A stretch of DNA of 64,000 nucleotides from an uncultured Bacilli bacterium (GTDB lineage: Bacteria > Bacillota_I > Bacilli_A > RF39 > UBA660): assembly GCA_934096945.1 (NCBI GenBank), contig CAKOND010000002.1:45975-109974 (forward strand), written 5' to 3'. The notes beneath the pieces were generated by a model. That model was given only the letters and a program-made list of their open reading frames with translations, did no database searches and had not been told where the DNA came from. Positions 26,933 through 42,207 of this stretch are shown piece after piece; the stretch's first letter is position 1, and each line of letters begins with the position of its first letter. Made by a program: the position numbers and the translations under genes.

Positions 26933-27295
26933 ATGAGTTTTAAAAGATTTTTAAATAGTATTAAATATTCAGTTGATGGTTTAGTTAATGCTTATCAAAA
27001 TGAACAGAGTTTATGGCTTCATGCTATGTGTACAATATTAATTGTAATTTTAGGATTTGCTTTACAAATAAGCTTTATTCAATGGGCAATAATTGTTATA
27101 GCTTTAGTTATAGTTTTAGCAGTTGAACTTTTAAATACTGCGATTGAAGCAACTGTTGATTTAGTTACTAAGGAAATTCATCCACTTGCTAAAGTTGCTA
27201 AAGATTGTGGGAGTGCAGCAGCATTTGTAAGTAGCATTATGGTATTTATTATTTGTTGTTTTATCTTTATTCCTAAGATTATTGCATTATTTTAG
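26933..27295 (+). CDS. dgkA: diacylglycerol/undecaprenol kinase
   Basis: ELLNTAIEATVDL motif and three TM segments. Confidence 0.85.
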   Translation: MSFKRFLNSIKYSVDGLVNAYQNEQSLWLHAMCTILIVILGFALQISFIQWAIIVIALVIVLAVELLNTAIEATVDLVTKEIHPLAKVAKDCGSAAAFVSSIMVFIICCFIFIPKIIALF

Positions 27296-27303
27296 AGGTA
27301 TTT

Positions 27304-28191
27304 ATGAGAAGTGGGTTTGTAAGTATTATAGGTAGACCGAATGTTGGTAAAAGTACTCTCATTAATGCTATTATAAATAGGAAGGTTGCTATTACAAGTA
27401 ATGTTTCTGGTACGACAAGAAATATTATTCAAGGGATATATAATGATAGTGATTCTCAGATAGTTTTTGTGGATACACCAGGAATACATAAACCAATTAA
27501 TAGACTTGGTAAAGTTTTAAATAAAGAAGCACTTGCTTCATCAAAAGATGTTGATCTTATATTATTTGTAGTTGATGTTGCATCAGGTATTGGTAAAGGT
27601 GACATGTTTATTTTGGATAACTTAAAGGGTAGTAGGGTTCCTGTTATACTAGTCCTTAATAAAATTGATGAAATTAGTACAGATAAATTATTTAGAACTA
27701 TTAATGAATTTAAAGATATTTATCCTTTTGTGGAAATTGTACCTACATCTGGTCTTAAAAATGATAATGTTGAACATTTAATAAGTGTTATTAAAAATTA
27801 TTTACATGATGAAGTTAAATATTTTCCAGATGAATATTATACATCAAGTAGTATTAAGTTTATGGTAAGTGAGCTTGTTAGAGAAAAACTTTTGCAAGTT
27901 ACAGAAGATGAAATTCCTCATAGTATTACTTGTTTTACAACTCTTTATGAAGAAAAGAAAGATATTGTAAATATTAATGTTGATATAATTGTTGATAGAG
28001 ATAATATAAAGAGAATAATTATTGGTAAAAATGGTAGTAGACTTAAAACTGTAGGGACACTTGCAAGAAAAGAAATTGAAGAAGAACTTACAGGTAAAAA
28101 AGTTTATCTTGAGTTATTTGTTAAAACAATAAAGAATTGGAAAGATAAAGAAAAGTACTTAATTGAATTAGGTTTTATAGATAATGAATAA
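27304..28191 (+). CDS. era: GTPase Era
   Basis: GRPNVGKST, DTPG and NKID G-motifs plus a KH domain. Confidence 0.95.
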   Translation: MRSGFVSIIGRPNVGKSTLINAIINRKVAITSNVSGTTRNIIQGIYNDSDSQIVFVDTPGIHKPINRLGKVLNKEALASSKDVDLILFVVDVASGIGKGDMFILDNLKGSRVPVILVLNKIDEISTDKLFRTINEFKDIYPFVEIVPTSGLKNDNVEHLISVIKNYLHDEVKYFPDEYYTSSSIKFMVSELVREKLLQVTEDEIPHSITCFTTLYEEKKDIVNINVDIIVDRDNIKRIIIGKNGSRLKTVGTLARKEIEEELTGKKVYLELFVKTIKNWKDKEKYLIELGFIDNE

Positions 28192-28231
28192 AATTTAGGG
28201 ATGTCACCCAATATATAATTAGGTGATAAAA

Positions 28232-28321
28232 ATGAATAAAGAAGAAGCATGGAAAAAGTTCCAAGAATCGGGAAAAGTAGAAGATTATTTACGTTATAAG
28301 GAAGCTGAAAAGAAGGATTAA
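28232..28321 (+). CDS. YqzL-like small protein (29 aa)
   Basis: MNKEEAWKKFQESGKVEDYLRYKEAEKKD sits in the conserved era-recO gap. It is absent from the ORF track because of its length. Confidence 0.55.
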   Translation: MNKEEAWKKFQESGKVEDYLRYKEAEKKD

Positions 28322-28323
28322 AT

Positions 28324-29049
28324 ATGCTAGAAGTAGATGGATTTGTTTTAAGTGAAATTCCATATGGTGAGTCTAGTAAAATAATAAATGTTTTAACTAG
28401 AGAGTATGGGGTAATTGGTATTATGTGTAAAGGTGCTAAGTCTTTAAAAAATAGATATAGAGTACCTACGATGAAGCTAAGTTATAGTCATTTTAACATA
28501 ATGTATAAAGAAAACAAATTATCTACCTTAGTTAGTGCTGATGTAATTAATTCCTTTAAACTTGTCAAAAGTGATATTCTTTTGGTAAGCTTTTTGGCGT
28601 ATTTAACGGAGCTTACTAGTCAAGTTGTTAAACAAAGTAATGATATAGAAAATATTTATGATGATTTTATAAAGACCATTTTAAAACTTGAAGATGGATT
28701 AGATCCGATAGTTTTAACTAATATTTTGGAAATTAAATATTTGGAATATTTAGGTGTTTTATTTAATTTGAATGAATGTGTTATATGTGGAAGTAAAAAT
28801 AATATAGCTACATTTGATGCTGATAAAGGTGGGTATATTTGTATAAATTGTTTAACTAATGAAATAATTGTGGATAAAAAGGTAATAAAAATGATAAGAA
28901 TGTATTATTATGTAAATATTGATTCAATTAAAGAAATAAAAGTTGATGATGTAACTAAGAATACTATAAATAAATATTTAGATTTATATTATGAAAGATA
29001 TACAGGGCTTTATTTAAATAGTAAAGACTTTTTAAAAAAATTAATGTAG
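28324..29049 (+). CDS. recO: DNA repair protein RecO
   Basis: OB-fold N-terminus and a CxxC...CxxC zinc site. Confidence 0.9.
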   Translation: MLEVDGFVLSEIPYGESSKIINVLTREYGVIGIMCKGAKSLKNRYRVPTMKLSYSHFNIMYKENKLSTLVSADVINSFKLVKSDILLVSFLAYLTELTSQVVKQSNDIENIYDDFIKTILKLEDGLDPIVLTNILEIKYLEYLGVLFNLNECVICGSKNNIATFDADKGGYICINCLTNEIIVDKKVIKMIRMYYYVNIDSIKEIKVDDVTKNTINKYLDLYYERYTGLYLNSKDFLKKLM

Positions 29050-29058
29050 GGTGGTAGT

Positions 29059-29652
29059 ATGGCAAATTTAACATTTTATTATGGAACAATGGCAGTTGGG
29101 AAAACAACTAAGTTATTACAAGATCATTATAATTATTCGAAATATTTGATTAATATAGTGGTTATGAAACCTAAAGTGGATACTAAAGGAAGTAATACTG
29201 TAGTAAATAGAATTGGGGAAAATATAAAAGTAGATGTTTTAATTCCAAAGAGTGCTAATCTGCTTAGTAAAAAGTATATGAGTAAGTTTATGTATGCTGA
29301 ATTTATTTTAGTTGATGAAGCACAATTCTTAAGAAGAGAACAAATTAATCAGTTGTGGTTTATTGCTCATAAATATAATATTTCTGTTATTTGTTATGGA
29401 CTTAAAAGTAATTTTAAAGGGGATTTATTCGAAGGCTCTGAACAGCTTTTTGCTCGAAGTGATGAAAAACATGAATTAACTGTTAATTGTTTGTGTGGAA
29501 AAACAGCGATGTTTAATGCTAGACGTGTTAATGGAAAATATAGTGCAAGTGGTAAAGAGGTTGTTATTGATGGTGCAAATGATGAAGTTGAATATATTCC
29601 TCTTTGTGCTGATCATTATTTAGAATATGTTATGAATGGAAGGTATAAATAA
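29059..29652 (+). CDS. tdk: thymidine kinase
   Basis: P-loop GTMAVGKTT; C-terminal Zn ligands CLCG...CADH. Confidence 0.9.
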   Translation: MANLTFYYGTMAVGKTTKLLQDHYNYSKYLINIVVMKPKVDTKGSNTVVNRIGENIKVDVLIPKSANLLSKKYMSKFMYAEFILVDEAQFLRREQINQLWFIAHKYNISVICYGLKSNFKGDLFEGSEQLFARSDEKHELTVNCLCGKTAMFNARRVNGKYSASGKEVVIDGANDEVEYIPLCADHYLEYVMNGRYK

Positions 29653-29679
29653 AGCTATTAATTTATAACTATTGAAAAA

Positions 29680-29705
29680 ATAGACTAGAATTAGTCTTTT
29701 TTCTT
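29680..29705 (+). terminator. tdk terminator
   Basis: agacta-gaa-ttagtct followed by a T-run. Confidence 0.65.
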
Positions 29706-29791
29706 TTGAAAATAATAAAATTAATCTTATATTTCTTGTAATTAATAATATATTTAGGTATAATTATATTTATCAAAGGAGTGATTTATTT

Positions 29792-31165
29792 ATGAAAGTA
29801 ACTATGGAAGAATTAGTTAACTATTGTAAACAATATGGTTTTATTTTTCAAGGAAGTGAAATATATAATGGACTTGCTAATTCATGGGATTATGGTCCAG
29901 TTGGTACAAATTTAAAAGAAAATATAAGAAAAGCTTGGAAGAAGAAATTTATTCAAGAAAATCCTTATAATGTTGGTCTTGATGCTGCGATTATTATGAA
30001 TCCAAAAGTATGGGTTGCATCTGGGCATGTTGCTTCTTTTGCAGATCCACTAATTGATTGTAAGAAGTGTAAGGCAAGACACAGAGCTGATAAACTAATT
30101 GAAGACTTTACTCATGGTGAAGTTACTGGTGATGGTTGGGATAATGAAAAATTAGAAAACTTTATTAAAGAAAACAATATTACTTGTCCAGTATGTGGTA
30201 AAAGTGATTTTACACCGATTAGAAAGTTTAACTTATTATTTGAAACATCTATTGGGGTAACTGATGATACTAAAAATACGGTTTATTTACGTGGAGAAAC
30301 AGCACAAGGGATTTTTGTTAATTTCAAAAATATTGAAAGAAGTATGAGACTTAAAGTACCATTTGGTATTTGTCAAACTGGTAAAGCTTTTAGAAATGAA
30401 ATTACTCCGGGTAACTTTATTTTTAGAACTCGTGAATTTGAACAAATGGAACTAGAATTTTTCTGTAAACCTGATACTGATTTAGAATGGTTTGGTTATT
30501 GGAAAAATTATTGTATGGACTTTTTAAAGACTTTAGGTTTAGATAGTGATAATCTTAGATTTAGAGATCATGAAAAAGAAGAATTATCGTTTTATAGTAA
30601 AGCCACAACTGATATAGAATTTATGTTCCCAATGGGATGGGGTGAACTTTGGGGTATTGCTGATAGAACTGATTATGACTTAACTGTTCATCAAAATGCT
30701 TCAGGTGCAGATTTAAGATATATGGATCCTGAAACAAATGAAAAATATTTACCATATGTTGTTGAACCATCTGTTGGTCTTGATAGATTACTTTTAGCAG
30801 TTTTGACAAATAGTTATACTAAAGAAATGGTTGAAGGCGAAGAAAGAATAGTTTTAAAAATTCATCCAGCTTTAGCTCCATATAAAGTAACTATTCTACC
30901 ACTTATTAAAAAGGTTCATGCTGGTAAAGCAAATGATATTTATGCAACTCTATGCAAATATTTTGATTGTCAATATGATGAATCTGGTTCAATTGGTAAA
31001 AGATATAGAAGAAGTGATGCAATAGGTACACCATTTGCTATAACAATTGATGATAATACAATAGAAAATGATACTGTAACACTTAGAGATAGAGATACAA
31101 TGGAACAAATTACAATTAAAGTTGATGAATTAGTGTCATTTATTAGTAAAAAGATTGAGTTATAA
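29792..31165 (+). CDS. glyQS: glycine--tRNA ligase (single-chain GlyQS type)
   Basis: YGFIFQGSEIYNGLANSWDYGPVG and class II motifs. Confidence 0.95.
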   Translation: MKVTMEELVNYCKQYGFIFQGSEIYNGLANSWDYGPVGTNLKENIRKAWKKKFIQENPYNVGLDAAIIMNPKVWVASGHVASFADPLIDCKKCKARHRADKLIEDFTHGEVTGDGWDNEKLENFIKENNITCPVCGKSDFTPIRKFNLLFETSIGVTDDTKNTVYLRGETAQGIFVNFKNIERSMRLKVPFGICQTGKAFRNEITPGNFIFRTREFEQMELEFFCKPDTDLEWFGYWKNYCMDFLKTLGLDSDNLRFRDHEKEELSFYSKATTDIEFMFPMGWGELWGIADRTDYDLTVHQNASGADLRYMDPETNEKYLPYVVEPSVGLDRLLLAVLTNSYTKEMVEGEERIVLKIHPALAPYKVTILPLIKKVHAGKANDIYATLCKYFDCQYDESGSIGKRYRRSDAIGTPFAITIDDNTIENDTVTLRDRDTMEQITIKVDELVSFISKKIEL

Positions 31166-31177
31166 TTTTTAAAGCTA

Positions 31178-31274
31178 GAGAAAAATCTCTGGCTTTATTC
31201 TTTTTTATGTAGTATAATTTAATTAATAAGAAAAATATTGTGTAAAACTCTTGTAAAAATTTTAAAAGTTTGAT
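31178..31274 (+). repeat. left copy of the 97-bp direct repeat flanking the 7-gene cassette (contains the glyQS terminator and a TATAAT at 31213)
   Basis: 94 of 97 positions are identical to 37099..37195, with no indels. Confidence 0.95.
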
Positions 31275-31289
31275 TATTGGAGGTACTTT

Positions 31290-31784
31290 ATGTATTTGTT
31301 AGAAGAAATAAAAAAAATAGTAGATAATGGTTCTAAGAAAATTGCTATTTTTGTGGATATGGATGGCGTTGTAGCAGATTATAGATTTGGGGAGGGTGAA
31401 AATATAAAGAATAACAAACCAGGTGTATACTTAAATAAGAGACCCATATATACTACAATAAAAAATTTGCAAATAATCAACGAAAAGATTAATTGTGAAA
31501 TGTATATGCTTAGTTCCTGCTTATATAAGGAACAAGCAAATGAAAAACAAATGTGGCTTACAAAATATATGCCATTTATTAAAGATGAAAATAAAATTTT
31601 TGCTTTGTCAAAAAATTTTGAATCTAGAAAAAAAGTTAAGATTGATAAAATAAAAGAAAAATTGTATTCTGATGAAATTGAATTAGCTATTCTAATTGAT
31701 GATACACATGATATATTATTTTTAGCATTATCAGAATTAAAAGAAAAAGTAATTCCATTTCATGTGATAACTTTGATTGATTAA
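31290..31784 (+). CDS. HAD-superfamily 5'(3')-deoxyribonucleotidase (NT5C-like)
   Basis: IAIFVDMDGVVADY (DxDxV motif) and LIDD near the C-terminus. Confidence 0.7.
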   Translation: MYLLEEIKKIVDNGSKKIAIFVDMDGVVADYRFGEGENIKNNKPGVYLNKRPIYTTIKNLQIINEKINCEMYMLSSCLYKEQANEKQMWLTKYMPFIKDENKIFALSKNFESRKKVKIDKIKEKLYSDEIELAILIDDTHDILFLALSELKEKVIPFHVITLID

Positions 31785-31797
31785 GGAGGAGAATGAT

Positions 31798-33306
31798 ATG
31801 AATTATGATGTAATAATAGATTGTTATACAGATGAACCCTCTGGATTAGGTGTACCACCATATCTAAGTGTACATTCTAGATATATAGCAGGTGTTTTAA
31901 AAAATAAGTCCATTAATTATTATTATTTAACTATTGATGATTTGCGTTTTGCAAATGGAGAAAAAAACTATAAAGATTCATATAATAAAAGAATAATAAA
32001 CAGAACAAAAAATGCTAATAACGTTTCAAAAATATTGAAAAATGCAACAAATATTTATGTGGTAATGGGATGTTTTGTTAAATATGAGTATGTATCTGCA
32101 GAGCCACCTACTTTTTTAGAAGTTGAAAAACTATTAAAAATTTTTTGCAACCAAAAAACTAATAAATTATTATTTTATTCTCTTGGAGGAAGTGAGTTAA
32201 CAAGAGAAAATGTAAGAAAAACAGTACCTAATAATTTGTTCGATGATATTATTTTTGGTAATACTTATAATTATTTTGTTGAAGAAAATGGTGATAAATT
32301 TAAACCTAATTACGATAAACTAAGACAAATTGCGATTGATTCCTCAAGTGTATTAGATCAACTAGAAAGACCAGTTATAATTGAAATAGAAACTGCTACA
32401 GGGTGTAATAGAAATCCAGGATGCTCGTTTTGTATAGAAGGAATGAGGGGATTACCACTACAATTTAGAGAAAAAGAAGATATTATAGATGAGATTAAAA
32501 GTTTATATAACAAAGGAGCCTTGTATTTTAGACTAGGAAGACAACCTAATTTTTATGCATATAAAAATTGTAATGTTGAGGAAATTGAGAATTTATTTAA
32601 AGGCATTTGGGATGTATGTCCAAATATAAAAACATTACATATAGATAATGTTAGTCCTCATAATGTAAATACGGAAGAAGGGGAAAGAATAACTGAAATT
32701 GTAGCTAAATATACTACTGCAGGAAATATTACACCATTTGGGATTGAGTCGTTTGATCCAATAATAAGAGAAAAATGTAATTTAAATGGGTCTTTGGATG
32801 ATATTCATAAGTCAATAACCATAATTAATAAGTATGGAAAAAAAAGAGAAGAAAATGGATTACCTAAATTACTTCCTGGTATTAATATAATTTATGGATT
32901 AGATGGACAAAATAAAAATACCTTAAAATATAATTTAGATAATTTTAATAAAATTTTGAATTCCGGAAATTGGGTACGAAGGGTTTTTGTTAGAAAATTA
33001 ACATCACCTTATGGAGAACAATTTGATAGTTATAGTGAAGAAGATTTGAAAGAATTTAATTTTTGGTGCAAAAAAATAGAAACTGAATTTATTGTTCCAA
33101 TGTTAAAAAAAGTTTTTCCAATTGACTTAGAAATTAGTGAGTTGAGAATGGAAATGTATAAAGATGGTAATTCGATTTTAAGGCAAATGGGAACGTGTCC
33201 AATAAGAGTTTTAATATTAAATAGTGAACTGGAATTAGATAAATTTTATAAAGTTAAGGTAGTTGGATACGTCGGTAATAGAACGATTATTGGAGATCTA
33301 ATATGA
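31798..33306 (+). CDS. radical SAM protein with N-terminal extension
   Basis: Cys triad in ETATGCNRNPGCSFCIEG. SD AAGGAGG. Confidence 0.7.
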   Translation: MNYDVIIDCYTDEPSGLGVPPYLSVHSRYIAGVLKNKSINYYYLTIDDLRFANGEKNYKDSYNKRIINRTKNANNVSKILKNATNIYVVMGCFVKYEYVSAEPPTFLEVEKLLKIFCNQKTNKLLFYSLGGSELTRENVRKTVPNNLFDDIIFGNTYNYFVEENGDKFKPNYDKLRQIAIDSSSVLDQLERPVIIEIETATGCNRNPGCSFCIEGMRGLPLQFREKEDIIDEIKSLYNKGALYFRLGRQPNFYAYKNCNVEEIENLFKGIWDVCPNIKTLHIDNVSPHNVNTEEGERITEIVAKYTTAGNITPFGIESFDPIIREKCNLNGSLDDIHKSITIINKYGKKREENGLPKLLPGINIIYGLDGQNKNTLKYNLDNFNKILNSGNWVRRVFVRKLTSPYGEQFDSYSEEDLKEFNFWCKKIETEFIVPMLKKVFPIDLEISELRMEMYKDGNSILRQMGTCPIRVLILNSELELDKFYKVKVVGYVGNRTIIGDLI

Positions 33307-33944
33307 AAAAAATAGGATTATTAATACCTAAAACCAATTTAACTGTTGAATACGAATTACAAATGCTTTTTAGTAAAGGATATTTTGATAATAAAAAAAG
33401 TGCGTTTTATACGTTTAGATTAAATTATAAAACAAGTTATAAAGAAAATAAATCGAAGTTTCTTGAAGAACTTGCTATGGATATAAATAATAAAAAAAGA
33501 GATTCAGCATATCTAGGCATAGATTATAATGCATTTTTTTGTACTACTTCAGCTATAGAAAACATGGTTGAAGAAATAAATCCGACCGTTTCATTAATTG
33601 AAGAATCAAAATTAAGGAATATAAAAAAATGTTTATTAATAACACCCTATAATAATAAATTGGGAAGAGAGATTGTAAGAGTGTTAGAAGACCATGAAAT
33701 TAAAGTTGTCAAAAATATAAATTTAGATTTAGTATGTACAACTGATTATTTTAATTATGGATTTAACAAGTTAGAAAATTTAATAAAAGAAAATTATTTA
33801 GATGAATATGGAAATATTATTATATCTTGTACAAATTTACCTACAATTAGTGTAATTGAGAGCTTGGAGAATAAGTTGAATACGCAAATTGTTTCAAGCA
33901 ATTCTAGCTTATTTGCAAAGATAAAGAGAGATAATAATATTTGA
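33303..33944 (+). CDS. Asp/Glu racemase-superfamily protein (maleate isomerase / arylmalonate decarboxylase-like)
   Basis: IGLLIPKTNLTVEYE; both catalytic-position Cys are present (FFCTTSA, ISCTNL); VSSNSS near the C-terminus. Confidence 0.7.
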   Translation: MKKIGLLIPKTNLTVEYELQMLFSKGYFDNKKSAFYTFRLNYKTSYKENKSKFLEELAMDINNKKRDSAYLGIDYNAFFCTTSAIENMVEEINPTVSLIEESKLRNIKKCLLITPYNNKLGREIVRVLEDHEIKVVKNINLDLVCTTDYFNYGFNKLENLIKENYLDEYGNIIISCTNLPTISVIESLENKLNTQIVSSNSSLFAKIKRDNNI

Positions 33945-33955
33945 AGGAGTTAAGT

Positions 33956-34717
33956 ATGACAAGGGAAGAATTTAAAAACGTTATTAATATTTGTAGTAAT
34001 CAAGAGGAGGTCAGAAATGCAGTAAAAAAAAATCACGATAATAACTTATGGTGGCCTCTTGATGTAGATGATTATAGAAAAAGGTTACTAATTGCTGGTC
34101 TTTCTACTAGAATTTCTTATAATATGATAAATAAATATAGAAAAGTAATAAATGATTTAAATAGTTACAATTATGGTGAAATCAAAAATAAGAATCAAGC
34201 TCAACTTATTGATATAATTAGAGGGTTAGGATTATCAAGTACAAGATGTAAATACTTATTATCAATGATTAGTTTTATAGAAAAGTATGATGAAGAAATA
34301 AAATTGTTGTCTAATGATGACTTAATTAAACTAATTGCTACCAATGTGAGTGGTGCATCTTATAAAGTTGCACAGTGCTGTGTTTTATATGTTAGGGGAT
34401 ATTATTCTGGTATAATGCCAGTTGATAGTGGTATGAAGGATGTAGAATTGCCTTGTTTAGGATTTGGACAATATAAAAATGCCTTGGGACATGAAATTTT
34501 AAGAAAAGAATTAGAAACATTGGTTAAAGATAATAACATGGAAAAAATAATAGAACAAAATGGATATGAAAAACTTAAAGTGGAAAATTATGACAACGCT
34601 ACATGGTTTTGTCATCTGGTTTTGGTATATTATAAACGCTTTTTTTGTAATAAACATCATCCGGAAAATTGTCCATTAAAAGAATACGTTGATGTAAAAT
34701 GTAAGTGTAGAAAATAA
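33956..34717 (+). CDS. HhH-GPD superfamily (DNA-glycosylase fold) protein with Cys-rich C-terminus
   Basis: HhH-like VSGASYKVAQCCVLY followed by PVDSG. C-terminal Cys residues: FCNKHHPENCPLKEYVDVKCKC. Confidence 0.6.
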   Translation: MTREEFKNVINICSNQEEVRNAVKKNHDNNLWWPLDVDDYRKRLLIAGLSTRISYNMINKYRKVINDLNSYNYGEIKNKNQAQLIDIIRGLGLSSTRCKYLLSMISFIEKYDEEIKLLSNDDLIKLIATNVSGASYKVAQCCVLYVRGYYSGIMPVDSGMKDVELPCLGFGQYKNALGHEILRKELETLVKDNNMEKIIEQNGYEKLKVENYDNATWFCHLVLVYYKRFFCNKHHPENCPLKEYVDVKCKCRK

Positions 34718-34733
34718 ATGGTAAAGGGAGATT

Positions 34734-35234
34734 ATGATGTTAATAGTAGAAGGTATAGATGGTGTAGGTAAAACAACTTTAGTTCAATATTTAGAAAATT
34801 ATGGAATGAAAAAATATCATTTTAATTATGATTCTCAGAATATGGATTTGTTTTCAAAGTATATGAAGGTTTTATTGGAAAATAATAGTGAATTGATATT
34901 GGATAGGTCATTTATTAGTGAAATGGTATATGGGCCTGTTATAAGAAATAAGTGTAAATTGAGTCTTGAGGAATATACTAAAATATTGCTTGCATATAGA
35001 AATGTTGGTACTCAAATTATTTATTTAACAGCTCCTAAGAAGATTTTACTAAAACGAAGAACTACTGAAAAAAATGATTATGAAATTATCATGAATTATT
35101 ATGAAGAATTAAATCAAAAGTATGATGAAATTATGAAATATTCTTCTAATTTTTTAGATGTAATTACAATAAATACTTATGAAGCTAATATTGAACAAGT
35201 TAGAAGTCAAGTAAAAAAATTGGTGAGAAAATGA
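34734..35234 (+). CDS. thymidylate-kinase-like P-loop nucleotide kinase
   Basis: IVEGIDGVGKTT P-loop and LDRSFISEMVYG (DR motif). Confidence 0.7.
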   Translation: MMLIVEGIDGVGKTTLVQYLENYGMKKYHFNYDSQNMDLFSKYMKVLLENNSELILDRSFISEMVYGPVIRNKCKLSLEEYTKILLAYRNVGTQIIYLTAPKKILLKRRTTEKNDYEIIMNYYEELNQKYDEIMKYSSNFLDVITINTYEANIEQVRSQVKKLVRK

Positions 35235-36787
35235 TTGATTTATGTTATGTAGGCAACTCTTCTAATGATAAAATTATCGTAAATGGTGAAACTTTTGATG
35301 AATTGGGAGGAAGTTGTATATATTCAAGTTTTTCTTCTAGATCTTCTTATGGTGGTAGTATTGCAATAATAAGTAAAATTGATAATGATACACAACTATT
35401 ATTGAAAAAGAAACGAATAGAGTTCTATGGTACTATTGTTAATAAAATGCCGGAGTTTTTAATTGATGAATCAAAGGCAACTTGCGAATCACGATTTTAT
35501 AATACAGATGCAATTAAATTGAAATCAAAAATTAATGTTAATTATTTGCACATATCACTACGAAGAGGTGTTGATGTTGATTCATTCATAGAGAATAAAT
35601 TATTGAATTATAATCATCTTTCAGTAGATGTAATGATACATAGTGTTGTAGATTTTATACCGATGATAGAAAAATACGTTTCAAAAATAGAAATTTTATT
35701 TTGCAATATTAATGAATATAATATAATAAGAAAATATATAAGAGATATCCCATTAGTAATAGTAACAAATGAAAATAAACCTGTTTTTGTGATAACCCCA
35801 TTTAAAACAATTAGCTATGATGTAATAAAAAATGAGAATGTTAAATCTACTACTGGTGCTGGAGATTCATTTATAGGTGGTTTTTTGTCAAAATATATAA
35901 TTAACCAGAATATAGATGAATCGGTTTCACAAGGTATTTACAATTCTAGTAAATCCATAGAAAAAATTGGTCCTTTAGTGTCTGTTCAACCATCTACAGA
36001 TAGTATTGTAAAATTAAAATTACTTCCTAATAATATTATAGTTATAGGTAATTCATGTGCTGGAAAAACAACATTTATAGATTATTTTATGAAGAATTAT
36101 GGTATATATTCGGTTATTGATGATTTAGATCCATTACTAGAAACTTTTATGTTAGATGATTTGTTATATCAAAATAGAATAGGTGAGTTTAAAAGGATAC
36201 AAAACAAACTTAAATATATTAATAATATATGGGAGGAGTATAACGATAATTTGGATGCAATAAATCCTTATACAATGCCGACAAAACATGGTAGTGGTCA
36301 CGATATAATAAGACCAATTTTATGGGATTATATAATTCAAATGGCTACTAAAAATTCAGAACGTCATAATATAATACAATTTTCAAGAGGTAGAGATGAA
36401 CTATATGAATCTCAATTTTTAGAAAATGCATATTCTCGTAGTATAGGGGGGTTTATCAATAATTTGGAAAATAATAACAATTCTATAATTATTAATTTGG
36501 TTTCAGACTTAAAAACAAGAAAAAATAGAAATATAATTAGATTTAAAAATGGGGGACATTATGTTTCAGACGATACTATGAATAAAGTGTATTCAAAAGA
36601 CATATTTAAATATGTAAAGACTGGTAAAAGTTTTGGCTATTTTATGGTTTTGGAAAAAATTATTCCAGTATATACTATTATTAACGATAAAACGCTTAAT
36701 AAGATTGATTTAGATAAATTTTTAGAGTATAATGTTAATAGGGTATTAGAATATTACAATAAATTTAAGGAGGAAACATGGAGCTAA
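35231..36787 (+). CDS. two-domain protein: PfkB (ribokinase-like) kinase fused to a second P-loop kinase-like domain
   Basis: TTGAGDSFIGGF PfkB signature around aa 205; second-domain Walker A VIGNSCAGKTTF. Confidence 0.65.
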   Translation: MIDLCYVGNSSNDKIIVNGETFDELGGSCIYSSFSSRSSYGGSIAIISKIDNDTQLLLKKKRIEFYGTIVNKMPEFLIDESKATCESRFYNTDAIKLKSKINVNYLHISLRRGVDVDSFIENKLLNYNHLSVDVMIHSVVDFIPMIEKYVSKIEILFCNINEYNIIRKYIRDIPLVIVTNENKPVFVITPFKTISYDVIKNENVKSTTGAGDSFIGGFLSKYIINQNIDESVSQGIYNSSKSIEKIGPLVSVQPSTDSIVKLKLLPNNIIVIGNSCAGKTTFIDYFMKNYGIYSVIDDLDPLLETFMLDDLLYQNRIGEFKRIQNKLKYINNIWEEYNDNLDAINPYTMPTKHGSGHDIIRPILWDYIIQMATKNSERHNIIQFSRGRDELYESQFLENAYSRSIGGFINNLENNNNSIIINLVSDLKTRKNRNIIRFKNGGHYVSDDTMNKVYSKDIFKYVKTGKSFGYFMVLEKIIPVYTIINDKTLNKIDLDKFLEYNVNRVLEYYNKFKEETWS

Positions 36788-37077
36788 AAAAAATTCAAAA
36801 AGATATTTGGCAAAATAAATTAAATAAGGGATTCAATACAACTGATGTGAACAAAGAGTTTTGTTTATTATATGGAGAAGTAGCTGAAGCATATGATGCT
36901 TGGAAAAAGAAAAAAGAAGATTTAAATGAAGAATTGGCTGATATTGCTATTTATTTGATGGGATTATCTGAAATGTTAGGGTTTGACTTAGAAGACGAAA
37001 TAGAAAAGAAAGTTTCTAAAAATGCAAAACGTGTGTATAAAAATATAAATGGCGTTAATGTACGCATAAGTGACTAA
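36778..37077 (+). CDS. MazG-like all-alpha NTP pyrophosphohydrolase
   Basis: LLYGEVAEAYDAW...EELADIAIYLMGL...KNAKR pattern. Confidence 0.7.
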   Translation: MELKKIQKDIWQNKLNKGFNTTDVNKEFCLLYGEVAEAYDAWKKKKEDLNEELADIAIYLMGLSEMLGFDLEDEIEKKVSKNAKRVYKNINGVNVRISD

Positions 37078-37098
37078 TCTTGAAACCTTTTAAAACTG

Positions 37099-37195
37099 GA
37101 GAAAAATCTCTGGTTTTATTCTTTTTTCTCTAGTATAATTTAATTAATAAGAAAAATATTGTGTAAAACTCTTGTAAAAATTTTAAAAGTTTGAT
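37099..37195 (+). repeat. right copy of the 97-bp direct repeat (carries the promoter in front of sepF)
   Basis: See 31178..31274. Confidence 0.95.
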
Positions 37196-37229
37196 AAAAT
37201 GGGATAGTAGACTAGGGAGGAAATCGATT

Positions 37230-37640
37230 ATGGGATTTAGCTTAAAAAATATTTTTAAAGATGATGATGATATAGATAATTTAAATGGTACAGAAGATGC
37301 ATATTACAATATTTCTGAAGAAGATGCTGTTAAAGAAGCTGATAAAACTGGAAATAAGATGATTTTACTTGAACCTCGTGCATACTCTGAATCACAACAA
37401 ATAGCTGATCATTTAAAGAATAGAAATAGTGTTGTAGTTAATTTAAAAAGAGTTACATCTGATCAAGCTAAGAGAATTATTGATTTTTTAAGTGGTGTTA
37501 TCTATGCAATAGGTGGTTCAATGCAAAAAATAGGTGTTGGTATTTATTTAGTGGCACCTAAGAATGTTAATGTTCAAGGTAAGATTACAGATGATGCAGA
37601 AAAACCAAGTAAAAGTACAGATGAAGAACTAGATTGGTAA
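37230..37640 (+). CDS. sepF: cell division protein SepF
   Basis: LEPRAYSESQQIADHLKNRNSVVVNL...DFLSG..YA..G. Start at ATG 37230 after GGGAGG. Confidence 0.9.
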   Translation: MGFSLKNIFKDDDDIDNLNGTEDAYYNISEEDAVKEADKTGNKMILLEPRAYSESQQIADHLKNRNSVVVNLKRVTSDQAKRIIDFLSGVIYAIGGSMQKIGVGIYLVAPKNVNVQGKITDDAEKPSKSTDEELDW

Positions 37641-37656
37641 TATAGGTGGTGGCCTT

Positions 37657-38085
37657 ATGGTAAATAAATTTAGTACAAGTATTCAAGGCTATAAAAAAGA
37701 AGAAGTTAATGATTTTGTTAAGGAAGTAACTGTTGAATATGAAAACATGTTACAAAAACTTAAGAGTAGTTGTGAGATAATTGAAAATTTAAAAGGGGAA
37801 CTTAAGCATTATAAAGATATTGAAGCAACTTTAAATCGAGCTATTCTTGTAGCGGAAGAATCAACTAGTAATATAAAGAAAGCAGCATATGATGAATCTA
37901 AAGTAATTATAGAAGATGCAAAGAGAAATGCAACTAAAGTTATTAATAATGCTTTACAAAAAGCTGAGAGAATTGAGTCAGAGGCAGAAAGTTTAAGAAG
38001 AAAAGTTGCAGTTTATAAAAGAAGATTCAGAACATTAGTTGAAGATCAACTTGATGAAATAGAACAATTTGATGATAGAGTATAA
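37657..38085 (+). CDS. DivIVA-domain protein
   Basis: N-terminal F.....GYKKEEVNDFV motif and a coiled coil. Confidence 0.8.
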   Translation: MVNKFSTSIQGYKKEEVNDFVKEVTVEYENMLQKLKSSCEIIENLKGELKHYKDIEATLNRAILVAEESTSNIKKAAYDESKVIIEDAKRNATKVINNALQKAERIESEAESLRRKVAVYKRRFRTLVEDQLDEIEQFDDRV

Positions 38086-38092
38086 AAAAGCA

Positions 38093-38407
38093 CTACTTTT
38101 TCTTAGTAGTGTTTTTTGGTGAAGTAATATATTCATTTACTTTTCTCATTAATACATAACTTCTAGATATTAGAAAACCAATTCCAAAGATTATTAGGAT
38201 AGTACCATATGCATACTGTGCGTATGAATTTTTCTTTGTGTAGGCTTCAACTAACATATAAATGCCAAATAAAATTAGAATAATACTATAAATAAGAATT
38301 CTTTTAAATCTTTGTTTTAAAAGTTTTCCTTGTTCTGTTTCATAGAATTTAGTTTTAGCTTCTTTTTTTTCTTCTTTGGAAAGTCTTTGATATTTATATT
38401 TTTTCAT
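38093..38407 (-). CDS. small membrane protein (2 TM)
   Basis: ORF; start trimmed to MKKYKYQ after GGTGA. Confidence 0.55.
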   Translation of the reverse strand: MKKYKYQRLSKEEKKEAKTKFYETEQGKLLKQRFKRILIYSIILILFGIYMLVEAYTKKNSYAQYAYGTILIIFGIGFLISRSYVLMRKVNEYITSPKNTTKKK

Positions 38408-38497
38408 AAAATTAATCACCAATTAGATTATAACACAAAATAAGGGACTAGTAAAATGGAAAGTTTTTGTGTATAATTATGTGTAGGAAGTGATAGT

Positions 38498-39133
38498 GTG
38501 AAAAAATTAAAAATTATATTTGGAATTCTTATAACAATTGTTGTTGGCTTTTTTGCGGTAAAACTTATTTTAGGTGTTGTGGAAAATGCTAGAATTAAAA
38601 AAATTAAAGAAGGATGGCATATTGAAGTTGTTAATGAATATATAAAAGTAAGAAAAGAGCCTAATCAAAATAGTTCTGAACTCGGTGAAGTAAAAAAAGG
38701 TGAAGTTTATAAGGTAGATGATTATGAAAATCATAATGGAAACTTTTGGTACCATGTGGAATATGAAAAAGGTAAATGGGGTTGGGTTGCTAATCCTCTG
38801 GGTAAAGATTATTTAAATGATACTAATAATGAAGATGATATTAAGGCCCCAACAATTAAATTTAATGATGCAGTGTATTATGTAGATTCTATTGAAGATA
38901 TAAATTATGATCATTTAGAAGTTACTGATGATAAACCTGGAGTTGTAGTTACACATAAAGTTTATCATGAAGTAAATGAAGAACAAAATAAAGATCAATA
39001 TTGGATACTATATATTGCTACTGATGCTGTTGGTAAGATAACTAAAAAGGTACAAAAAATTGAATTTAATAAAAGACCAGATGAATCACAAGTTGAAGAT
39101 TTTGTAAAACTTGCTGAAGATAGAAAGAATTAG
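38498..39133 (+). CDS. membrane-anchored SH3b-domain protein
   Basis: YIKVRKEPNQNSSELGEVKKGEVYKV......W..V....GWV. Confidence 0.7.
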   Translation: MKKLKIIFGILITIVVGFFAVKLILGVVENARIKKIKEGWHIEVVNEYIKVRKEPNQNSSELGEVKKGEVYKVDDYENHNGNFWYHVEYEKGKWGWVANPLGKDYLNDTNNEDDIKAPTIKFNDAVYYVDSIEDINYDHLEVTDDKPGVVVTHKVYHEVNEEQNKDQYWILYIATDAVGKITKKVQKIEFNKRPDESQVEDFVKLAEDRKN

Positions 39134-39224
39134 TTTGATTGCTAATTCTTTTTGTATAAAAGGCCACTGACTATTAATCGGAGGGCATAAAAAAACTCTC
39201 TATATAGAGAGTAATGTTACTTAA

Positions 39225-39300
39225 TGGTGTCCCCTCAGGGATTCGAACCCTGGACCCATTGATTAAGAGTCAATTGCTCTACCAACTGAGCTAAGGAGAC
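39225..39300 (-). tRNA. tRNA-Lys(CUU)
   Basis: Anticodon loop CTCTTAA; CCA encoded. Confidence 0.9.
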
Positions 39301-39425
39301 AAAAACGTTCCTAAGAACAAATAGATTATATCAAAAACTTATTCATAATGCAAGGATTTTGAGAAAAATAATTGTTAATATTGAATAAAAATGTTATACT
39401 TAGTAAAAGAATAGGAATGGTTGTT

Positions 39426-41153
39426 ATGTTTGGTAAGATTAAAAAAATAGATAATAATGAAGTTACAATTGAAAATATATCTGGTAAAGCCATATCTAGT
39501 TTAATGAACTGTCATGTGATATTTTTAGAAAATAATCGAAAAATAGTGGGTGAAATAATTTATATTGATGAAATAGAGGCTAAAATTCTTTTAGTAGGTG
39601 AAATAATTGATAATAAGTTTCATGCTGGAATTATAAAGAAACCTAGTGGTATATCTGAGGTTAGAGTTATTACAAAAGATGAGCTTGAACTTATTATTGG
39701 AAGTAGCATTATTTTGAAGGAAAATTTATTACTGGGCTCTTCAGCAATATATAAAAACTTTAATGTGTCTGTATCCCTTAACGATATATTTGCAAATCAT
39801 TTAGCAGTAATAGGAAATACTGGTTCTGGGAAGTCTTGTGGGGTTGCTAGAATGCTTCAAAATTTATTTTTTATAAATAAACCAATTAATTCTCATATAG
39901 TTTTATTTGATGCTTATGGTGAATATGTTGATACTTTTAAAACTATAAATGATATGAATTTAAAATTTGTAAGTTATTCGGGAAATTCAAAAAATGAGAA
40001 AGAACTTCAACTTAAGTTTCCTGCTTGGTTTTTAGATGTTGATGATTTAGCTTTGCTTCTTTCCGTTACAAGTTCTGATCAATTACCTGTTCTCAAGAAA
40101 ACATTAAAGTTAGTTAAAATTTTTAAGGGTAATAGTCCAGAGATGAAAAAATATAAAAATGATATTATAGCTAAGTGTTTAATGGATGTTTTAACAAGTG
40201 GAAGACCATCAACGACGATGCGTGACCAAATAATTGCGGTTTTATCACATTATAATACTGATGATTTAAATTTAGAGTCAATTATACATCAACCTGGATA
40301 TGATAGAACTTTTAGACAATGTCTTTTAATTGATGACTCAGGAAAAATGAATGCTATTTATGAAGTTATGAATTTTTTGCAACAATTTGAACATATAGAT
40401 TTGGAAAGTATAGATATTGTTGATGCTATGTGTTATTCTTTGGAAGATTTGTATAATGCCTTGGAATTTTCTTTGATAAGTGAAGGAACTATAAATAATG
40501 ATGCTATTTATAAAGAAATGAATATTTTAAAAGTTAGACTTCAAAATATTATAAATAGTAATAATAAATATATATTTAATTTGGATGAATATATTGGTAA
40601 AGAAGAATTTGTAAGAAATATGTTTGTTAAAAATAATCTAGTTAATATTGATTTAAGTGATGTAGATGATGAATTTGCTAAAGTATTAACTAAAATATAT
40701 AGTAAACTTTTATTTAATTATACAACTTCATTAGATAAAAGAGGCAGTTTGTCATTTAATATTATTTTGGAAGAAGCCCATAGATATGTTCAAAATGATA
40801 ATGATATAAATGTAATTGGTTATAACATATTTGATAGAATTACTAAAGAAGGAAGAAAGTATGGAACACTTCTTACATTTATTACGCAAAGACCTAGTGA
40901 ACTATCTACGACTGCTTTAAGTCAATGTGCTAATTTTATTGTTTTTAGGGTATTTCATCCAGCAGACTTAGAGATTGTTAGAACAATGAGCACTAATGTA
41001 TCAAAGGCTAATATTGAGCAAATTAAATCATTATCACCTGGTTCTGCTTATGCTTTTGGTGTAGGCTTTAAAATACCAACATTAGTTAATTTTGAAATGC
41101 CAAATCCTGTTCCTGAGAGTACAAGTGTTAATGTTAAAAATATTTGGTTTTAA
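39426..41153 (+). CDS. HerA-like (DUF87) P-loop ATPase
   Basis: N-terminal barrel-like region, Walker A GNTGSGKS, IILEEAHRY, FITQRPSEL. Confidence 0.75.
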   Translation: MFGKIKKIDNNEVTIENISGKAISSLMNCHVIFLENNRKIVGEIIYIDEIEAKILLVGEIIDNKFHAGIIKKPSGISEVRVITKDELELIIGSSIILKENLLLGSSAIYKNFNVSVSLNDIFANHLAVIGNTGSGKSCGVARMLQNLFFINKPINSHIVLFDAYGEYVDTFKTINDMNLKFVSYSGNSKNEKELQLKFPAWFLDVDDLALLLSVTSSDQLPVLKKTLKLVKIFKGNSPEMKKYKNDIIAKCLMDVLTSGRPSTTMRDQIIAVLSHYNTDDLNLESIIHQPGYDRTFRQCLLIDDSGKMNAIYEVMNFLQQFEHIDLESIDIVDAMCYSLEDLYNALEFSLISEGTINNDAIYKEMNILKVRLQNIINSNNKYIFNLDEYIGKEEFVRNMFVKNNLVNIDLSDVDDEFAKVLTKIYSKLLFNYTTSLDKRGSLSFNIILEEAHRYVQNDNDINVIGYNIFDRITKEGRKYGTLLTFITQRPSELSTTALSQCANFIVFRVFHPADLEIVRTMSTNVSKANIEQIKSLSPGSAYAFGVGFKIPTLVNFEMPNPVPESTSVNVKNIWF

Positions 41154-41220
41154 ATTTATGGCTATTCTAAATTGCATTAGAATAGTTTTTTTGCTATAAT
41201 TATGAAGGAGGGTATTTATA

Positions 41221-42207
41221 ATGGGCTTATTTGATAAATTAAAAAAAATTATTAATAAAAAAGAAAATATAGAAGTAAAGGATGAAAATATAAAAAAATA
41301 TGATGAAGGCTTAGAAAAATCAAGAAATGAATTTGTTTCTAAATTAAGTATGCTTGGTATAAAATATACTAAAATAAATGATGAATATTTTGACGAACTG
41401 GAAAATATTTTGATTATGGCTGATATTGGGGTTAATACAGTTATGGATTTTATGGATAGACTTAGAAAAAGAGTAAAATCTGAAAATATAACTGATACTA
41501 AATATTTAAATGAAGTTATAGTTGATGAACTTTTTATAATATATGTTAATAATGAATCTATAACTGATAAAATAAATATGGCTGAAGATGGACCAACAGT
41601 TATACTTATGGTTGGTGTTAATGGAGTAGGTAAAACCACAACTATTTCTAAGCTTGCCCATAAATATAAAAATGAAGGCAAAAAGGTAATGTTAATAGCT
41701 GGTGATACTTTTAGAGCTGGAGCTGTTGAACAATTAAAAATCTGGGCAGATAGGACTAATTCTTTATTTTATGGTAAAGAAAATACTGATCCCGCTGGTG
41801 TTATTTATGATGGACTTCTAAAAGCTAAAGAGAATAATGCCGATATAGTTTTAATTGATACTGCAGGTAGACTTCACAATAAGGTTAATTTAATGAAAGA
41901 GCTAGAAAAAATAAATAAAGTTATTGGCAAGATTATTCCTGGTGCACCTCATGAAACATTACTTGTAATTGATGCCACTACTGGTCAAAATGGTATTATG
42001 CAAGCTAAAGCATTTAAAGAAATTACTGATATTACAGGAATAGTTTTAACTAAGCTGGATGGGACTGCTAAAGGTGGAATTGTACTTGCAATAAAAGAAG
42101 AGGTAAATATTCCAGTTAAGTTTGTAGGATTAGGTGAAAAAATGACAGATTTAATTCCTTTTGATATAGAAAATTATATTTATGGTTTATTTAAGGATTT
42201 GATGTAA
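41221..42207 (+). CDS. ftsY: signal recognition particle receptor FtsY
   Basis: GVNGVGKTTT, DTAGR and TKLDG motifs. Confidence 0.95.
   Translation: MGLFDKLKKIINKKENIEVKDENIKKYDEGLEKSRNEFVSKLSMLGIKYTKINDEYFDELENILIMADIGVNTVMDFMDRLRKRVKSENITDTKYLNEVIVDELFIIYVNNESITDKINMAEDGPTVILMVGVNGVGKTTTISKLAHKYKNEGKKVMLIAGDTFRAGAVEQLKIWADRTNSLFYGKENTDPAGVIYDGLLKAKENNADIVLIDTAGRLHNKVNLMKELEKINKVIGKIIPGAPHETLLVIDATTGQNGIMQAKAFKEITDITGIVLTKLDGTAKGGIVLAIKEEVNIPVKFVGLGEKMTDLIPFDIENYIYGLFKDLM

Follow-up and report, generated by a model that had tools for sequence, protein, structure and literature searches.

A strain-variable seven-gene operon between glyQS and sepF of an uncultured gut Bacilli species, probably acquired by single-crossover insertion-duplication

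A seven-gene cassette flanked by a 108-nucleotide direct repeat

The 64,000-nucleotide stretch analysed here, referred to as the window, is part of contig CAKOND010000002.1 from an uncultured Bacilli bacterium (RF39, UBA660). Between the glycine-tRNA ligase gene glyQS and sepF, the window contains a cassette of seven genes, g1 to g7, enclosed by two copies of a direct repeat (Table 1). An earlier note, made from the sequence of the window, had described repeats of 97 bp, and both were recovered at positions 31178-31274 and 37099-37195. They are identical at 94 of 97 positions and align without gaps, and no match of this kind is expected by chance. The three mismatches (copy 1/copy 2) are 31193 C/T, 31207 A/C, and 31209 G/C. 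The weaker similarity that the note had seen to the left of the 97-mer can be included by gapless extension, which results in a repeat of 108 nt (31167-31274 and 37088-37195) with 103 of 108 identical positions and a spacing of 5921 nt; the extension adds mismatches at 31174 (G/A) and 31177 (A/G). The hairpin and TATAAT box attributed to each copy are present in both, and these two hairpins are the only terminator-like ones within positions 31000-37400. The interval between the copies is filled by seven open reading frames (ORFs) on the plus strand, as described.

Table 1 Positions of the repeat copies, cassette genes, and neighbouring genes in the window
Feature	Position	Strand	Evidence or composition
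glyQS, glycine-tRNA ligase, left neighbour	29792..31165	+	Pfam tRNA-synt_2b and HGTP_anticodon
Repeat copy 1 (glyQS terminator, TATAAT, leader)	31167..31274	+	Comparison with empty alleles
Terminator-like hairpin, copy 1	31170..31197	+	12 pairs, AAAA loop, T tract
TATAAT box of copy 1	31213-31218	+	Perfect match
Foreign DNA, seven-gene cassette, 5813 nt	31275..37087	+	g1 ribosome-binding site to 10 nt past g7 stop
g1, HAD-family 5'(3')-deoxyribonucleotidase-like (NT5C)	31290..31784	+	Pfam PF06941, 28.1 bits (cut-off 24.8)
g2, radical SAM enzyme, 502 aa	31798..33306	+	Pfam Radical_SAM
g3, Asp/Glu-racemase-superfamily protein (Amdase or maleate-isomerase-like)	33303..33944	+	Pfam Amdase, 24.6 bits, just under cut-off; NCBIfam matches
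g4, HhH-GPD DNA-glycosylase-like	33956..34717	+	Weak Pfam match, 17 (cut-off 26.2); predicted fold
g5, dNK or dTMP-kinase-like P-loop kinase	34737..35234	+	Pfam dNK, 36.9 bits; Thymidylate_kin, 33.1 bits; PHROG thymidylate kinase, 1e-18
g6, PfkB ribokinase-like domain and second P-loop kinase-like domain	35231..36787	+	Pfam PfkB, 45 bits
g7, MazG-like all-alpha NTP pyrophosphohydrolase	36778..37077	+	Pfam MazG-like, 35.8 bits; MazG, 27 bits
Repeat copy 2 (cassette terminator; sepF promoter and leader)	37088..37195	+	Comparison with empty alleles
Terminator-like hairpin, copy 2	37091..37118	+	12 pairs; one stem pair changed from G-C to A-T on both sides
TATAAT box of copy 2	37134-37139	+	Perfect match
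sepF, right neighbour, 136 aa	37230..37640	+	Pfam SepF
divIVA, after sepF	37657-38085		Pfam DivIVA

The window contains no third copy of the repeat, the next best match being 21 nt long. A dispersed repeat, the possibility that the earlier note had named as fatal to its reading, was rejected because the sequence is present in two copies in the window and in two copies in each related locus. A riboswitch or other RNA within the repeat was also rejected: the Rfam scan of positions 27000-42000 identified only tRNA-Lys (39228-39300) and an overlapping sub-threshold small RNA match, neither of them in the repeat. The scan for sigma-70 promoters is uninformative in such AT-rich DNA (52 sites found, 52.7 expected). 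The repeat is not an assembly artefact, since the copies differ by single-nucleotide polymorphisms and independent assemblies from other studies and assemblers share the structure.

Empty and filled alleles within one species

The exact glycine-tRNA ligase (GlyRS) protein of the window is encoded on four other metagenomic contigs, L081, L082, L083, and L084 (L numbers designate the contigs and loci used for comparison). In the first three, glyQS is followed by a 143-nt spacer, sepF, and divIVA, and the contig of L084 breaks off inside a single spacer of this empty type. The 143-nt spacer corresponds to one repeat copy with the left context of copy 1 and the right context of copy 2. Its length, 109 nt on the left side plus 34 nt on the right, is exactly that left by the removal of the cassette and one copy. 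None of the 13 contigs with identical GlyRS (three) or identical SepF (ten, L187-L196) contains the cassette, and in 12 of them the single spacer lies directly between glyQS and sepF. The remaining contig, L189, also has a single spacer copy, but behind an unrelated ORF. This other insertion (L189:1894-2870, equivalent to window position 31166) consists of a 312-residue ORF without a Pfam family, placed between the glyQS stop codon and the terminator, and has left the spacer unduplicated. The filled allele is also present in L096 (143 kb), L097, L098, and L099, which originate from other samples and have the cassette at the same site behind the same copy 1. Identical GlyRS is found on same-species contigs both with and without the cassette.

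The exact 136-residue SepF protein occurs in 569 blocks of the assembly index, of which ten long contigs were examined, and the exact radical SAM protein g2 in only ten blocks. Given the 569 SepF blocks, the host is an abundant human-gut species. In more distant relatives with 69-83% GlyRS identity (L001, L002, L008, L009, and L011), glyQS is directly followed by sepF(-divIVA), and no cassette gene is located nearby in any of 80 related glyQS loci. The spacers of the nearest other species (L001 and L002) are too diverged to be aligned, and the same-species contigs were used for the spacer comparison instead. The empty state is ancestral, because most same-species contigs and all the distant relatives compared lack the cassette. 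The arrangement of glyQS, 143-nt spacer, and sepF is thus the original allele and still prevails, and the insertion, which has a copy of the first 108 nt of this spacer on either side, is confined to a minority of strains of one species. The earlier note had predicted an empty site consisting of glyQS, one repeat copy, and sepF, and same-species contigs have precisely this site with the gap of the predicted length. Its proposal that the native spacer was duplicated agrees with the single copy in empty alleles and the two copies in filled ones. The opposite outcome, in which all relatives carry the cassette with duplicated flanks, is contradicted by the majority of empty sites.

Boundaries and expression of the foreign DNA

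Comparison by BLAST with the cassette of another gut species (L199) showed that window positions 31276-37085 align at 85%, and nothing outside of them does. The foreign DNA begins 15 nt before the ATG of g1 and ends about 10 nt after the stop codon of g7. The closest related cassettes (L085, L107, L100/L108, and L199/L200) share a conserved upstream region of about 110 nt with a TTGACA-17-TGTGTTATAAT promoter. This promoter is missing from the cassette in the window, which is cut 15 nt before the g1 start codon and retains only the ribosome-binding site. Since the cassette has lost its own promoter, its transcription must come from the promoter of copy 1, and the comparison with related cassettes therefore supports the earlier note, which had assigned this role to copy 1.

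The following division of roles can be proposed from the sequence. The terminator of copy 1 would still end the glyQS transcript, and its TATAAT promoter would drive the promoter-less cassette. Copy 2 would terminate the cassette transcript and return the native promoter and leader to sepF and divIVA. The duplication of the promoter would enable both the new operon and the essential division genes downstream to keep their expression. The GC content stays at about 25% throughout the insertion and its junctions; it gives no sign of a compositional island and is uninformative either way.

Fine structure of the repeat copies and spread of the cassette allele

Six positions of the spacer are variable: 31174, 31177, 31193, 31207, 31209, and 31227 in copy 1 coordinates, to which 5921 is added for copy 2. 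In this order, the empty alleles have G, A, C, C, G, and C or T, and copy 1 of all filled contigs has G, A, C, A, G, and T. Copy 2 reads A, G, T, C, C, and T in the window and L096, and A, G, C, C, G, and C in L097 and L099. The C/T variation at 31227 is a natural polymorphism among empty alleles, and A at 31209 occurs in L188 alone. Copy 1 is the spacer of the empty alleles except for 31207, where its A is found in no empty allele, and the polymorphic 31227, where it has T. The left 43 nt of copy 2 contain four bases seen in no empty allele (37095 A, 37098 G, 37114 T, and 37130 C), on the side that borders the 3' end of the cassette, and the copies do not differ over their right 65 nt. The changes at 31174 and 31193 affect both sides of one stem pair, turning G-C into A-T and leaving the second hairpin intact, as expected of a functional orthologous spacer. 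This mosaic is compatible with a single crossover involving a slightly diverged spacer attached to the 3' end of the cassette, with the exchange in the identical right part, and the cassette-proximal part of copy 2 in the window looks donor-derived.

The cassettes of the window and L096-L099 differ at zero to three of 5813 nt. The adjacent glyQS differs by up to 3.2% among the filled strains, and a divergence of up to 5.3% separates the empty alleles from the window. The near-identity of the cassette in strains whose flanks differ by 3-5% shows that ordinary homologous recombination in the flanks has passed the allele from one diverged strain to another. In L097 and L099, the sequence of copy 2 is cassette-type up to 37098 and empty-type from 37114 on, so that at least one crossover took place inside copy 2 as the allele entered a diverged strain.

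The empty contig L081 is 99.86% identical to the window on the left of the insertion and 100% identical on the right, over about 13 kb. The differences are located at 30748, at 30994, and inside the repeats, with a separate cluster at 26574-26829, 4 kb further left. The differences between 30748 and 37148 mark the recombination tract that carried the cassette. The spacer of L081 cannot be obtained from the two copies of the window by one crossover, because C at 31207 and G at 31209 require copy 2 followed by copy 1, and C at 31227 is present in neither. Therefore, L081 is no simple excision product of the window haplotype, and the loss by recombination between the repeats that the earlier note had anticipated is not demonstrated by this closest empty allele. 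The comparison of filled and empty contigs gives evidence of homologous exchange of a presence/absence allele, and of neither excision nor amplification. Upstream of glyQS in L096, 155 nt appear to be inserted together with a duplication of 55 nt; this was rejected as a scaffolding artefact, since it consists of a 100-N gap with 55-nt overlapping ends (L096:7849-7948).

Flanking repeats at other loci of the operon

Flanking direct repeats are present at eight of 15 scorable loci of related cassettes, with E values from 1e-11 to 4e-75, lengths of 42-193 nt, and identities of 75-98%; the 15 loci include the same or closely related species and represent fewer than 15 independent insertions. Among 190 equally spaced window pairs in cassette-free loci, which served as a control, one reached E ≤1e-10, and none had a repeat longer than 43 nt. 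The repeats are unrelated in sequence between loci and occur in two copies per locus. At L104, a perfect repeat of the last 42 nt of the upstream gene continues into about 150 nt of about 70% identity. At L125, a duplication covers the first 158 nt of an acylphosphatase gene. Its upstream copy runs out into a diverged tail, and in its downstream copy the start of the gene and the g7 stop codon overlap in a 7-nt microhomology (TGATTAA). At L115, a 48-nt tail of a Nudix gene travels with the cassette, upstream of a resident Nudix gene that is 89% identical. These scars indicate that the operon repeatedly lands next to sequence homologous to DNA that it carries, leaving a partial duplication. Unrelated genomes bear a scar of this kind around the operon, which suggests that the route is commoner than catalogued.

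Mechanism of the insertion

Taken as a whole, the locus is best explained as a strain-variable accessory operon that was horizontally acquired, originated at this site by a single crossover, and serves a function in non-canonical deoxynucleotide metabolism, and we consider this combination probable. Based on the repeat copies, the empty alleles, and the related cassettes, a sequence of events can be proposed. The starting point would have been a fragment from a related donor on which the cassette, its promoter end already lost, adjoined a slightly diverged version of the same spacer. After circularisation, the fragment would have entered the chromosome by a single homologous crossover within the right-hand part of the spacer, where the two sequences are identical. 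Such a Campbell-type insertion-duplication would leave donor-type bases in the left part of copy 2, by the 3' end of the cassette. We infer this mechanism from the final structure and regard it as well supported.

Campbell-type integration had already been suggested in the earlier note. The mosaic of the copies, the scars at other loci, and a precedent in Escherichia coli speak for it, and neither a circle nor a tandem junction was seen. In the E. coli experiment, in which linear DNA had homology at one end, 56 of 60 recombinants were recircularised, single-crossover integrants with duplications of 109-950 bp, and true homology-facilitated illegitimate recombination (HFIR) was rare (PMC3240628). 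The insertion in the window resembles these products, and those of suicide-vector integration, in that the insert lies between direct repeats of a resident sequence that is single in the empty alleles, and in that recombinase, inverted ends, and short target duplication are lacking. The repeat of 108 nt, and those of 42-193 nt elsewhere, lie near or slightly under the lower limit of the experimental range. The insertion differs from the experimental integrants in being a natural event without a vector backbone, in its very short homologous arm, in that the circle is deduced, and in that similar scars recur for the same operon in unrelated genomes. The route belongs to a known kind of event, which recurs across genomes and of which the present locus is an unusually clean natural case: a whole operon was gained without mobile-element machinery, and filled and empty alleles coexist in the population.

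Several observations weigh against this explanation. Seven of the 15 cassette loci are without a flanking repeat. The loci examined included no circle, no tandem array or junction (g7-repeat-g1), and no donor allele with the cassette and a single spacer. At L125, the copies are 97.5% identical and then abruptly diverge, with microhomology at the other junction, a structure that a combination of one homologous and one illegitimate joint explains no less well than a plain circle does. The private base of copy 1, A at 31207, is not predicted by the simple model, and the variant bases may be clustered in the hairpin as a result of selection and not of donor ancestry.

The strongest competing explanation, which we nevertheless regard as unlikely, is duplicative illegitimate insertion in place. 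A linear fragment would pair by homology or microhomology at one end, join by microhomology behind the first joint, and bridge sister chromosomes or a staggered break, so that both repeat copies would be derived from the recipient. The circle and the in-place event lead to the same final structure and differ only in the donor or recipient origin of the cassette-proximal part of the downstream copy. The seven-nucleotide microhomology of L125, together with the abrupt switch of its upstream copy to a diverged tail, suits the in-place event. A homology anchor on one side, microhomology at the other joint (as at L125), and remnants of donor flanks that travel with the cassette (L104, L115, and L125) are features shared with HFIR, which is known in competent species (PMC3240628), and with duplications induced by transformation, and transformation-driven bridging of sister chromatids occurs in Streptococcus pneumoniae (PMC3784515). 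However, described HFIR mostly deletes recipient DNA instead of duplicating it (PMC3240628), and the pneumococcal duplications span 100-900 kb, compared with about 100 bp here (PMC3784515). Copies that were identical at the start would have needed five substitutions in 216 nt while the 5.8-kb cassette gained at most three, which leaves little time for such changes. Furthermore, four of the five differences, including the compensated stem pair, are clustered at the cassette-proximal end of copy 2, which is unexpected from an identical start; by a rough estimate, the chance that they fall in one 36-nt stretch is about 0.003 for that given stretch and about 0.02 for any stretch.

Two other explanations are far less plausible than either of these. 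In the first, which we regard as very improbable, the repeats would be the attachment sites of a recombinase acting in trans, and the cassette would be a non-autonomous integrative element. Direct repeats do flank the cassette at several loci, the repeat of L122 starts at the 3' end of a tRNA gene, and a serine recombinase is encoded about 1 kb upstream at L115. The repeats are, however, unrelated between loci, and variable in both length and identity, the repeat in the window is a resident spacer that is single in empty alleles, and no recombinase gene is located near the insertion in the window. It is equally hard to credit that the cassette and repeats were ancestral in the species and that the empty alleles arose as deletions by repeat recombination. 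A crossover between copy 1 and a copy 2 of the L097 type would regenerate the common empty spacer exactly, but the five distant relatives have sepF directly after glyQS, the empty alleles form a large majority on diverged backgrounds, the near-invariance of the cassette between strains indicates recent spread, and L081 is not derivable from the window haplotype by one crossover.

Transposition and integrase-mediated integration were rejected because of the lack of a recombinase, the lack of inverted repeats, and the long, variable duplications. Pfam, NCBIfam, and PHROG searches identified no recombinase or transposase domain in the seven products, and these domain searches and the comparison of the repeats agree with the earlier note that the element has no integrase, transposase, or short target-site duplication; terminal inverted repeats are absent as well. 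A transposon or insertion sequence would not account for a duplication of 108 nt that varies between loci. An integrase-mediated island is at odds with the absence of an integrase gene in or next to 31167-37195, with the locus-specific repeats, and with the position of the nearest tRNA gene (tRNA-Lys) outside the element.

Products of the seven genes

The nucleotidase-like protein g1 carries a DMDGV motif. The radical SAM enzyme g2 is predicted to consist of an N-terminal Rossmann-like domain, a barrel with a CX5CX2C motif, and a C-terminal beta-barrel (model pLDDT 91.6), and the cysteines C203, C209, and C212 do not vary among homologues. It is closest in fold to MtaB, MiaB, and RimO (E 6e-17 to 1e-14) and shares the three-domain architecture of these methylthiotransferases. 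In contrast to MiaB and RimO, which have a three-cysteine site for an auxiliary cluster in the N-terminal domain and the motif CX3CX2C, g2 lacks this site and has only one conserved cysteine (C9) in the domain. With a score of 25.8, it is far below the cut-off of 251 of the NCBIfam model TIGR00089. Therefore, membership of g2 in the MiaB/RimO family was rejected. Both CT motifs of g3, which contain cysteines of the catalytic type, are invariant in nine divergent orthologues. The retention of both cysteines suggests that g3 is a racemase or isomerase rather than a decarboxylase.

The predicted fold of g4 (model pLDDT 80) matches those of MagIII, endonuclease III, and Mag1 with a probability of 1.0, but with TM scores of only 0.41-0.48 and an E value of 3e-3. 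Residues K137 and D157 of g4 are invariant and lie in a G-x-x-x-K-x-A ... V-D motif, read by eye, where endonuclease III has its catalytic pair. The C-terminal P-loop domain of g6 has no family assignment. The best conserved protein of the cassette is g7, with 91-95% identity in the closest cassettes. PADLOC did not call a defence system and returned only single weak matches, none of them for g2. The best were those of g5, which matched PDC-M51B in its P-loop residues alone (4.9e-7) and VakA along its whole length (1.6e-6). A prokaryotic viperin or another catalogued defence system was rejected, as PADLOC found no complete system.

Distribution of the operon

Homologues of g2 with 42-89% identity number in the thousands and come from assemblies of Lachnospiraceae, other Clostridia, Bacilli, and Dojkabacteria. 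The seven genes occur in the same order at sites unrelated to one another: after ppdK (L085 and L199-L204), after pheST (L100-L103 and L108), before uvrB (L093), and by a WYL regulator and a tRNA-His gene (L087-L092). In distant versions, the gene content is kept across phyla despite shuffled gene order and fusions. The genes g4 and g5 are fused in three distant lineages (L122, L126, and L133), and each half of g6 has a gene of its own in L129, L133, and L122. In L129, a Ham1 pyrophosphatase takes the place of the MazG protein g7, and a HAD domain is fused to g5. A linear plasmid of Streptomyces carries g2, g3, g4, a PfkB gene, a nucleoside 2-deoxyribosyltransferase gene, g5, and g7, annotated as hypothetical or in generic terms. 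Literature searches for the gene combination returned no description of the operon. It is an uncharacterised system that extends across several phyla and includes human-gut Bacillota, candidate-phylum bacteria, and Streptomyces. It is unnamed in family, defence-system, and literature searches, yet widespread in human-gut Bacillota.

No homologue of g2 was found in IMG/VR contigs or GenBank phages, and the g2-type copies on replicons of Streptomyces and haloarchaea are only 30% identical. A phage or plasmid vector was rejected on these grounds.

One species has a cassette in decay: the radical SAM gene is in pieces on three of the four contigs compared (L100-L102:9563-11071), and on the fourth (L103:12995-13190) it is intact and g6 and g7 are deleted. 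The distant version in L122 contains a 75-nt inverted duplication (L122:3511-3585 and 9775-9849), in which the same 5' region and first 13 codons precede a HAD gene and the divergent MazG gene; this represents another way of copying a promoter. In the closest other species, an ORF of 117 residues and an ORF with a ParB-N domain precede the operon (L199:7747-8419 and L200:14541-14966), and some strains have a nucleoside 2-deoxyribosyltransferase-like gene after it. These may be additional components. A peptidase-C39 ABC exporter is encoded a few kilobases upstream of the operon in two unrelated contexts (L087:3112-5172 and L129:3947-7515), with small ORFs beside it in L087 and an HlyD-like protein in L129, which hints at an antagonism island.

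Possible function of the operon

Based on the families of the seven products, we tentatively propose that the operon makes or handles a toxic or non-canonical deoxynucleotide, an assignment for which the evidence is close to evenly balanced. The radical SAM enzyme g2 and the two-cysteine isomerase g3 would do the chemistry, and the three kinases and the nucleotidase would move the compound between phosphorylation states. The MazG protein and the glycosylase-like protein would protect the nucleotide pool and DNA of the producer, and the product would most likely act against competitors or phages. This assignment is suggested because the kinases could reach the triphosphate, two enzymes could reverse it, and the pyrophosphatase is swapped between MazG and Ham1; the fusion of g4 to the kinase in some lineages and the recurrence of deoxyribosyltransferases as accessories point in the same direction. 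A wider description, which we put forward more cautiously still, is that of an undescribed cross-phylum system that builds a modified deoxynucleotide, either a toxic analogue or a DNA base modification, is equipped with pool sanitation and DNA surveillance, and moves without a recombinase by single crossovers of circles that leave duplications of 40-200 bp. The absence of a match between any cassette protein and a characterised orthologue counts against the proposed function, as do the lack of a transporter in the cassette and the negative PADLOC result.

The closest characterised logic is that of thmABC of Photorhabdus, in which 4'-thiothymidine is produced by a radical SAM enzyme together with a dNK-type kinase, and an NTPase provides self-protection (PMC12691670). 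The thmABC genes occur in varying genomic contexts, and their homologues were reported only in gamma-proteobacteria (PMC12691670). Both gene sets are compact, context-independent, and centred on a deoxynucleotide, and combine a radical SAM enzyme, a dNK-family kinase, and an NTP hydrolase (g2, g5, and g7 here), a likeness at the level of enzyme classes only. In contrast to the three thm genes, the operon has seven, and its additional products are the two-cysteine isomerase, the HhH-GPD protein, the PfkB protein with its second P-loop kinase domain, and the HAD nucleotidase. Its hosts are Bacillota, candidate-phylum bacteria, and Actinomycetota, whereas those of thmABC are Enterobacterales. If the operon makes a nucleoside analogue, it is a candidate source of an antimicrobial or antiviral compound from gut commensals.

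A serious alternative, though not a likely one, is that the operon modifies bases in the DNA of its own cell in the manner of phage thymidine hypermodification. A combination of MazG and a nucleotidase, such as that of the cassette, is typical of phage base-replacement toolkits. The phage pathways employ a P-loop kinase, an HhH glycosylase-like transferase, a radical SAM enzyme, and a decarboxylase (PMC8989533). The same four enzyme classes lie side by side in the cassette, and the fusion of g4 and g5 in three lineages joins kinase and HhH protein. Neither Pfam nor the fold search places the products in the phage families: there is no Pfam match (E ≤0.01) to the 5-hydroxymethyldeoxyuridine (5-hmdU) DNA kinase or aGPT-Pplase families of phages, and the fold search places g4 nearer to true glycosylases, with the phage amino-acid:DNA transferase reaching only E 3.4 and a probability of 0.08. 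The two cysteines kept in g3 favour a racemase or isomerase over a decarboxylase, the cassette includes no hydroxymethylase, TET-like enzyme, or other 5-hmdU-forming enzyme, and the operon is cellular and absent from all phage collections searched. If the operon does modify DNA, it represents a new cellular DNA modification pathway. The gene set is a variant of known nucleotide-modifying clusters, and may turn out to be more than that.

A still less probable alternative is a module for salvage, repair, and pool sanitation that deals with a damaged or diet-derived nucleoside and has no toxic product. Kinases, a nucleotidase, MazG (Ham1 in L129), and a repair-type glycosylase are classic housekeeping activities, and nucleoside 2-deoxyribosyltransferase genes accompany distant versions of the operon. 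However, the cassette is rare within the species, has been transferred across phyla, and decays readily, with a broken radical SAM gene in L100-L102 and a deletion of g6 and g7 in L103. Such behaviour is more suited to a gene set for conflict or a particular niche than to housekeeping.

Gene starts and variable regions around the cassette

The start of sepF was corrected to the ATG at 37230, which results in a protein of 136 residues. The start of the radical SAM gene was corrected to the ATG at 31798, as in all homologues (502 residues); the look-up of g2 with a TTG start was empty.

The cassette is located one or a few genes downstream of a thymidine kinase gene in two species (window 29059-29652; L199:4088-4672, three genes in L199), which may be due to chance or to shared synteny. 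Thymidine kinase activates thymidine analogues. The spacer between the thymidine kinase gene and glyQS (window 29653-29791), one gene upstream, is likewise variable between strains. In L193 it contains a ToxN toxin gene after 42-nt repeats, probably a toxI array (L193:870-1403), and in L187 a gene with an ASCH domain (L187:1039-1380). In L084, the thymidine kinase gene is missing its 3' part. Another variable island adjoins the tRNA-Lys gene (window 39228-41153), where the window has a gene for a HerA/DUF87-FtsK-like ATPase. The same island lies downstream of an SH3 gene in L187, L190, L191, and L194, and its alternative contents between strains include a tyrosine integrase, an LtaS-family (sulfatase-domain) gene, and a radical SAM/SPASM gene followed by a gene with the helical domain of 5-hmdU DNA kinase. 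At the other side of the window, positions 1592-8164 contain four consecutive overlapping ORFs of 516-624 residues with scattered sub-threshold Pfam matches, none of which passes as a domain alone; they look like a tandem paralogous family of repetitive proteins.

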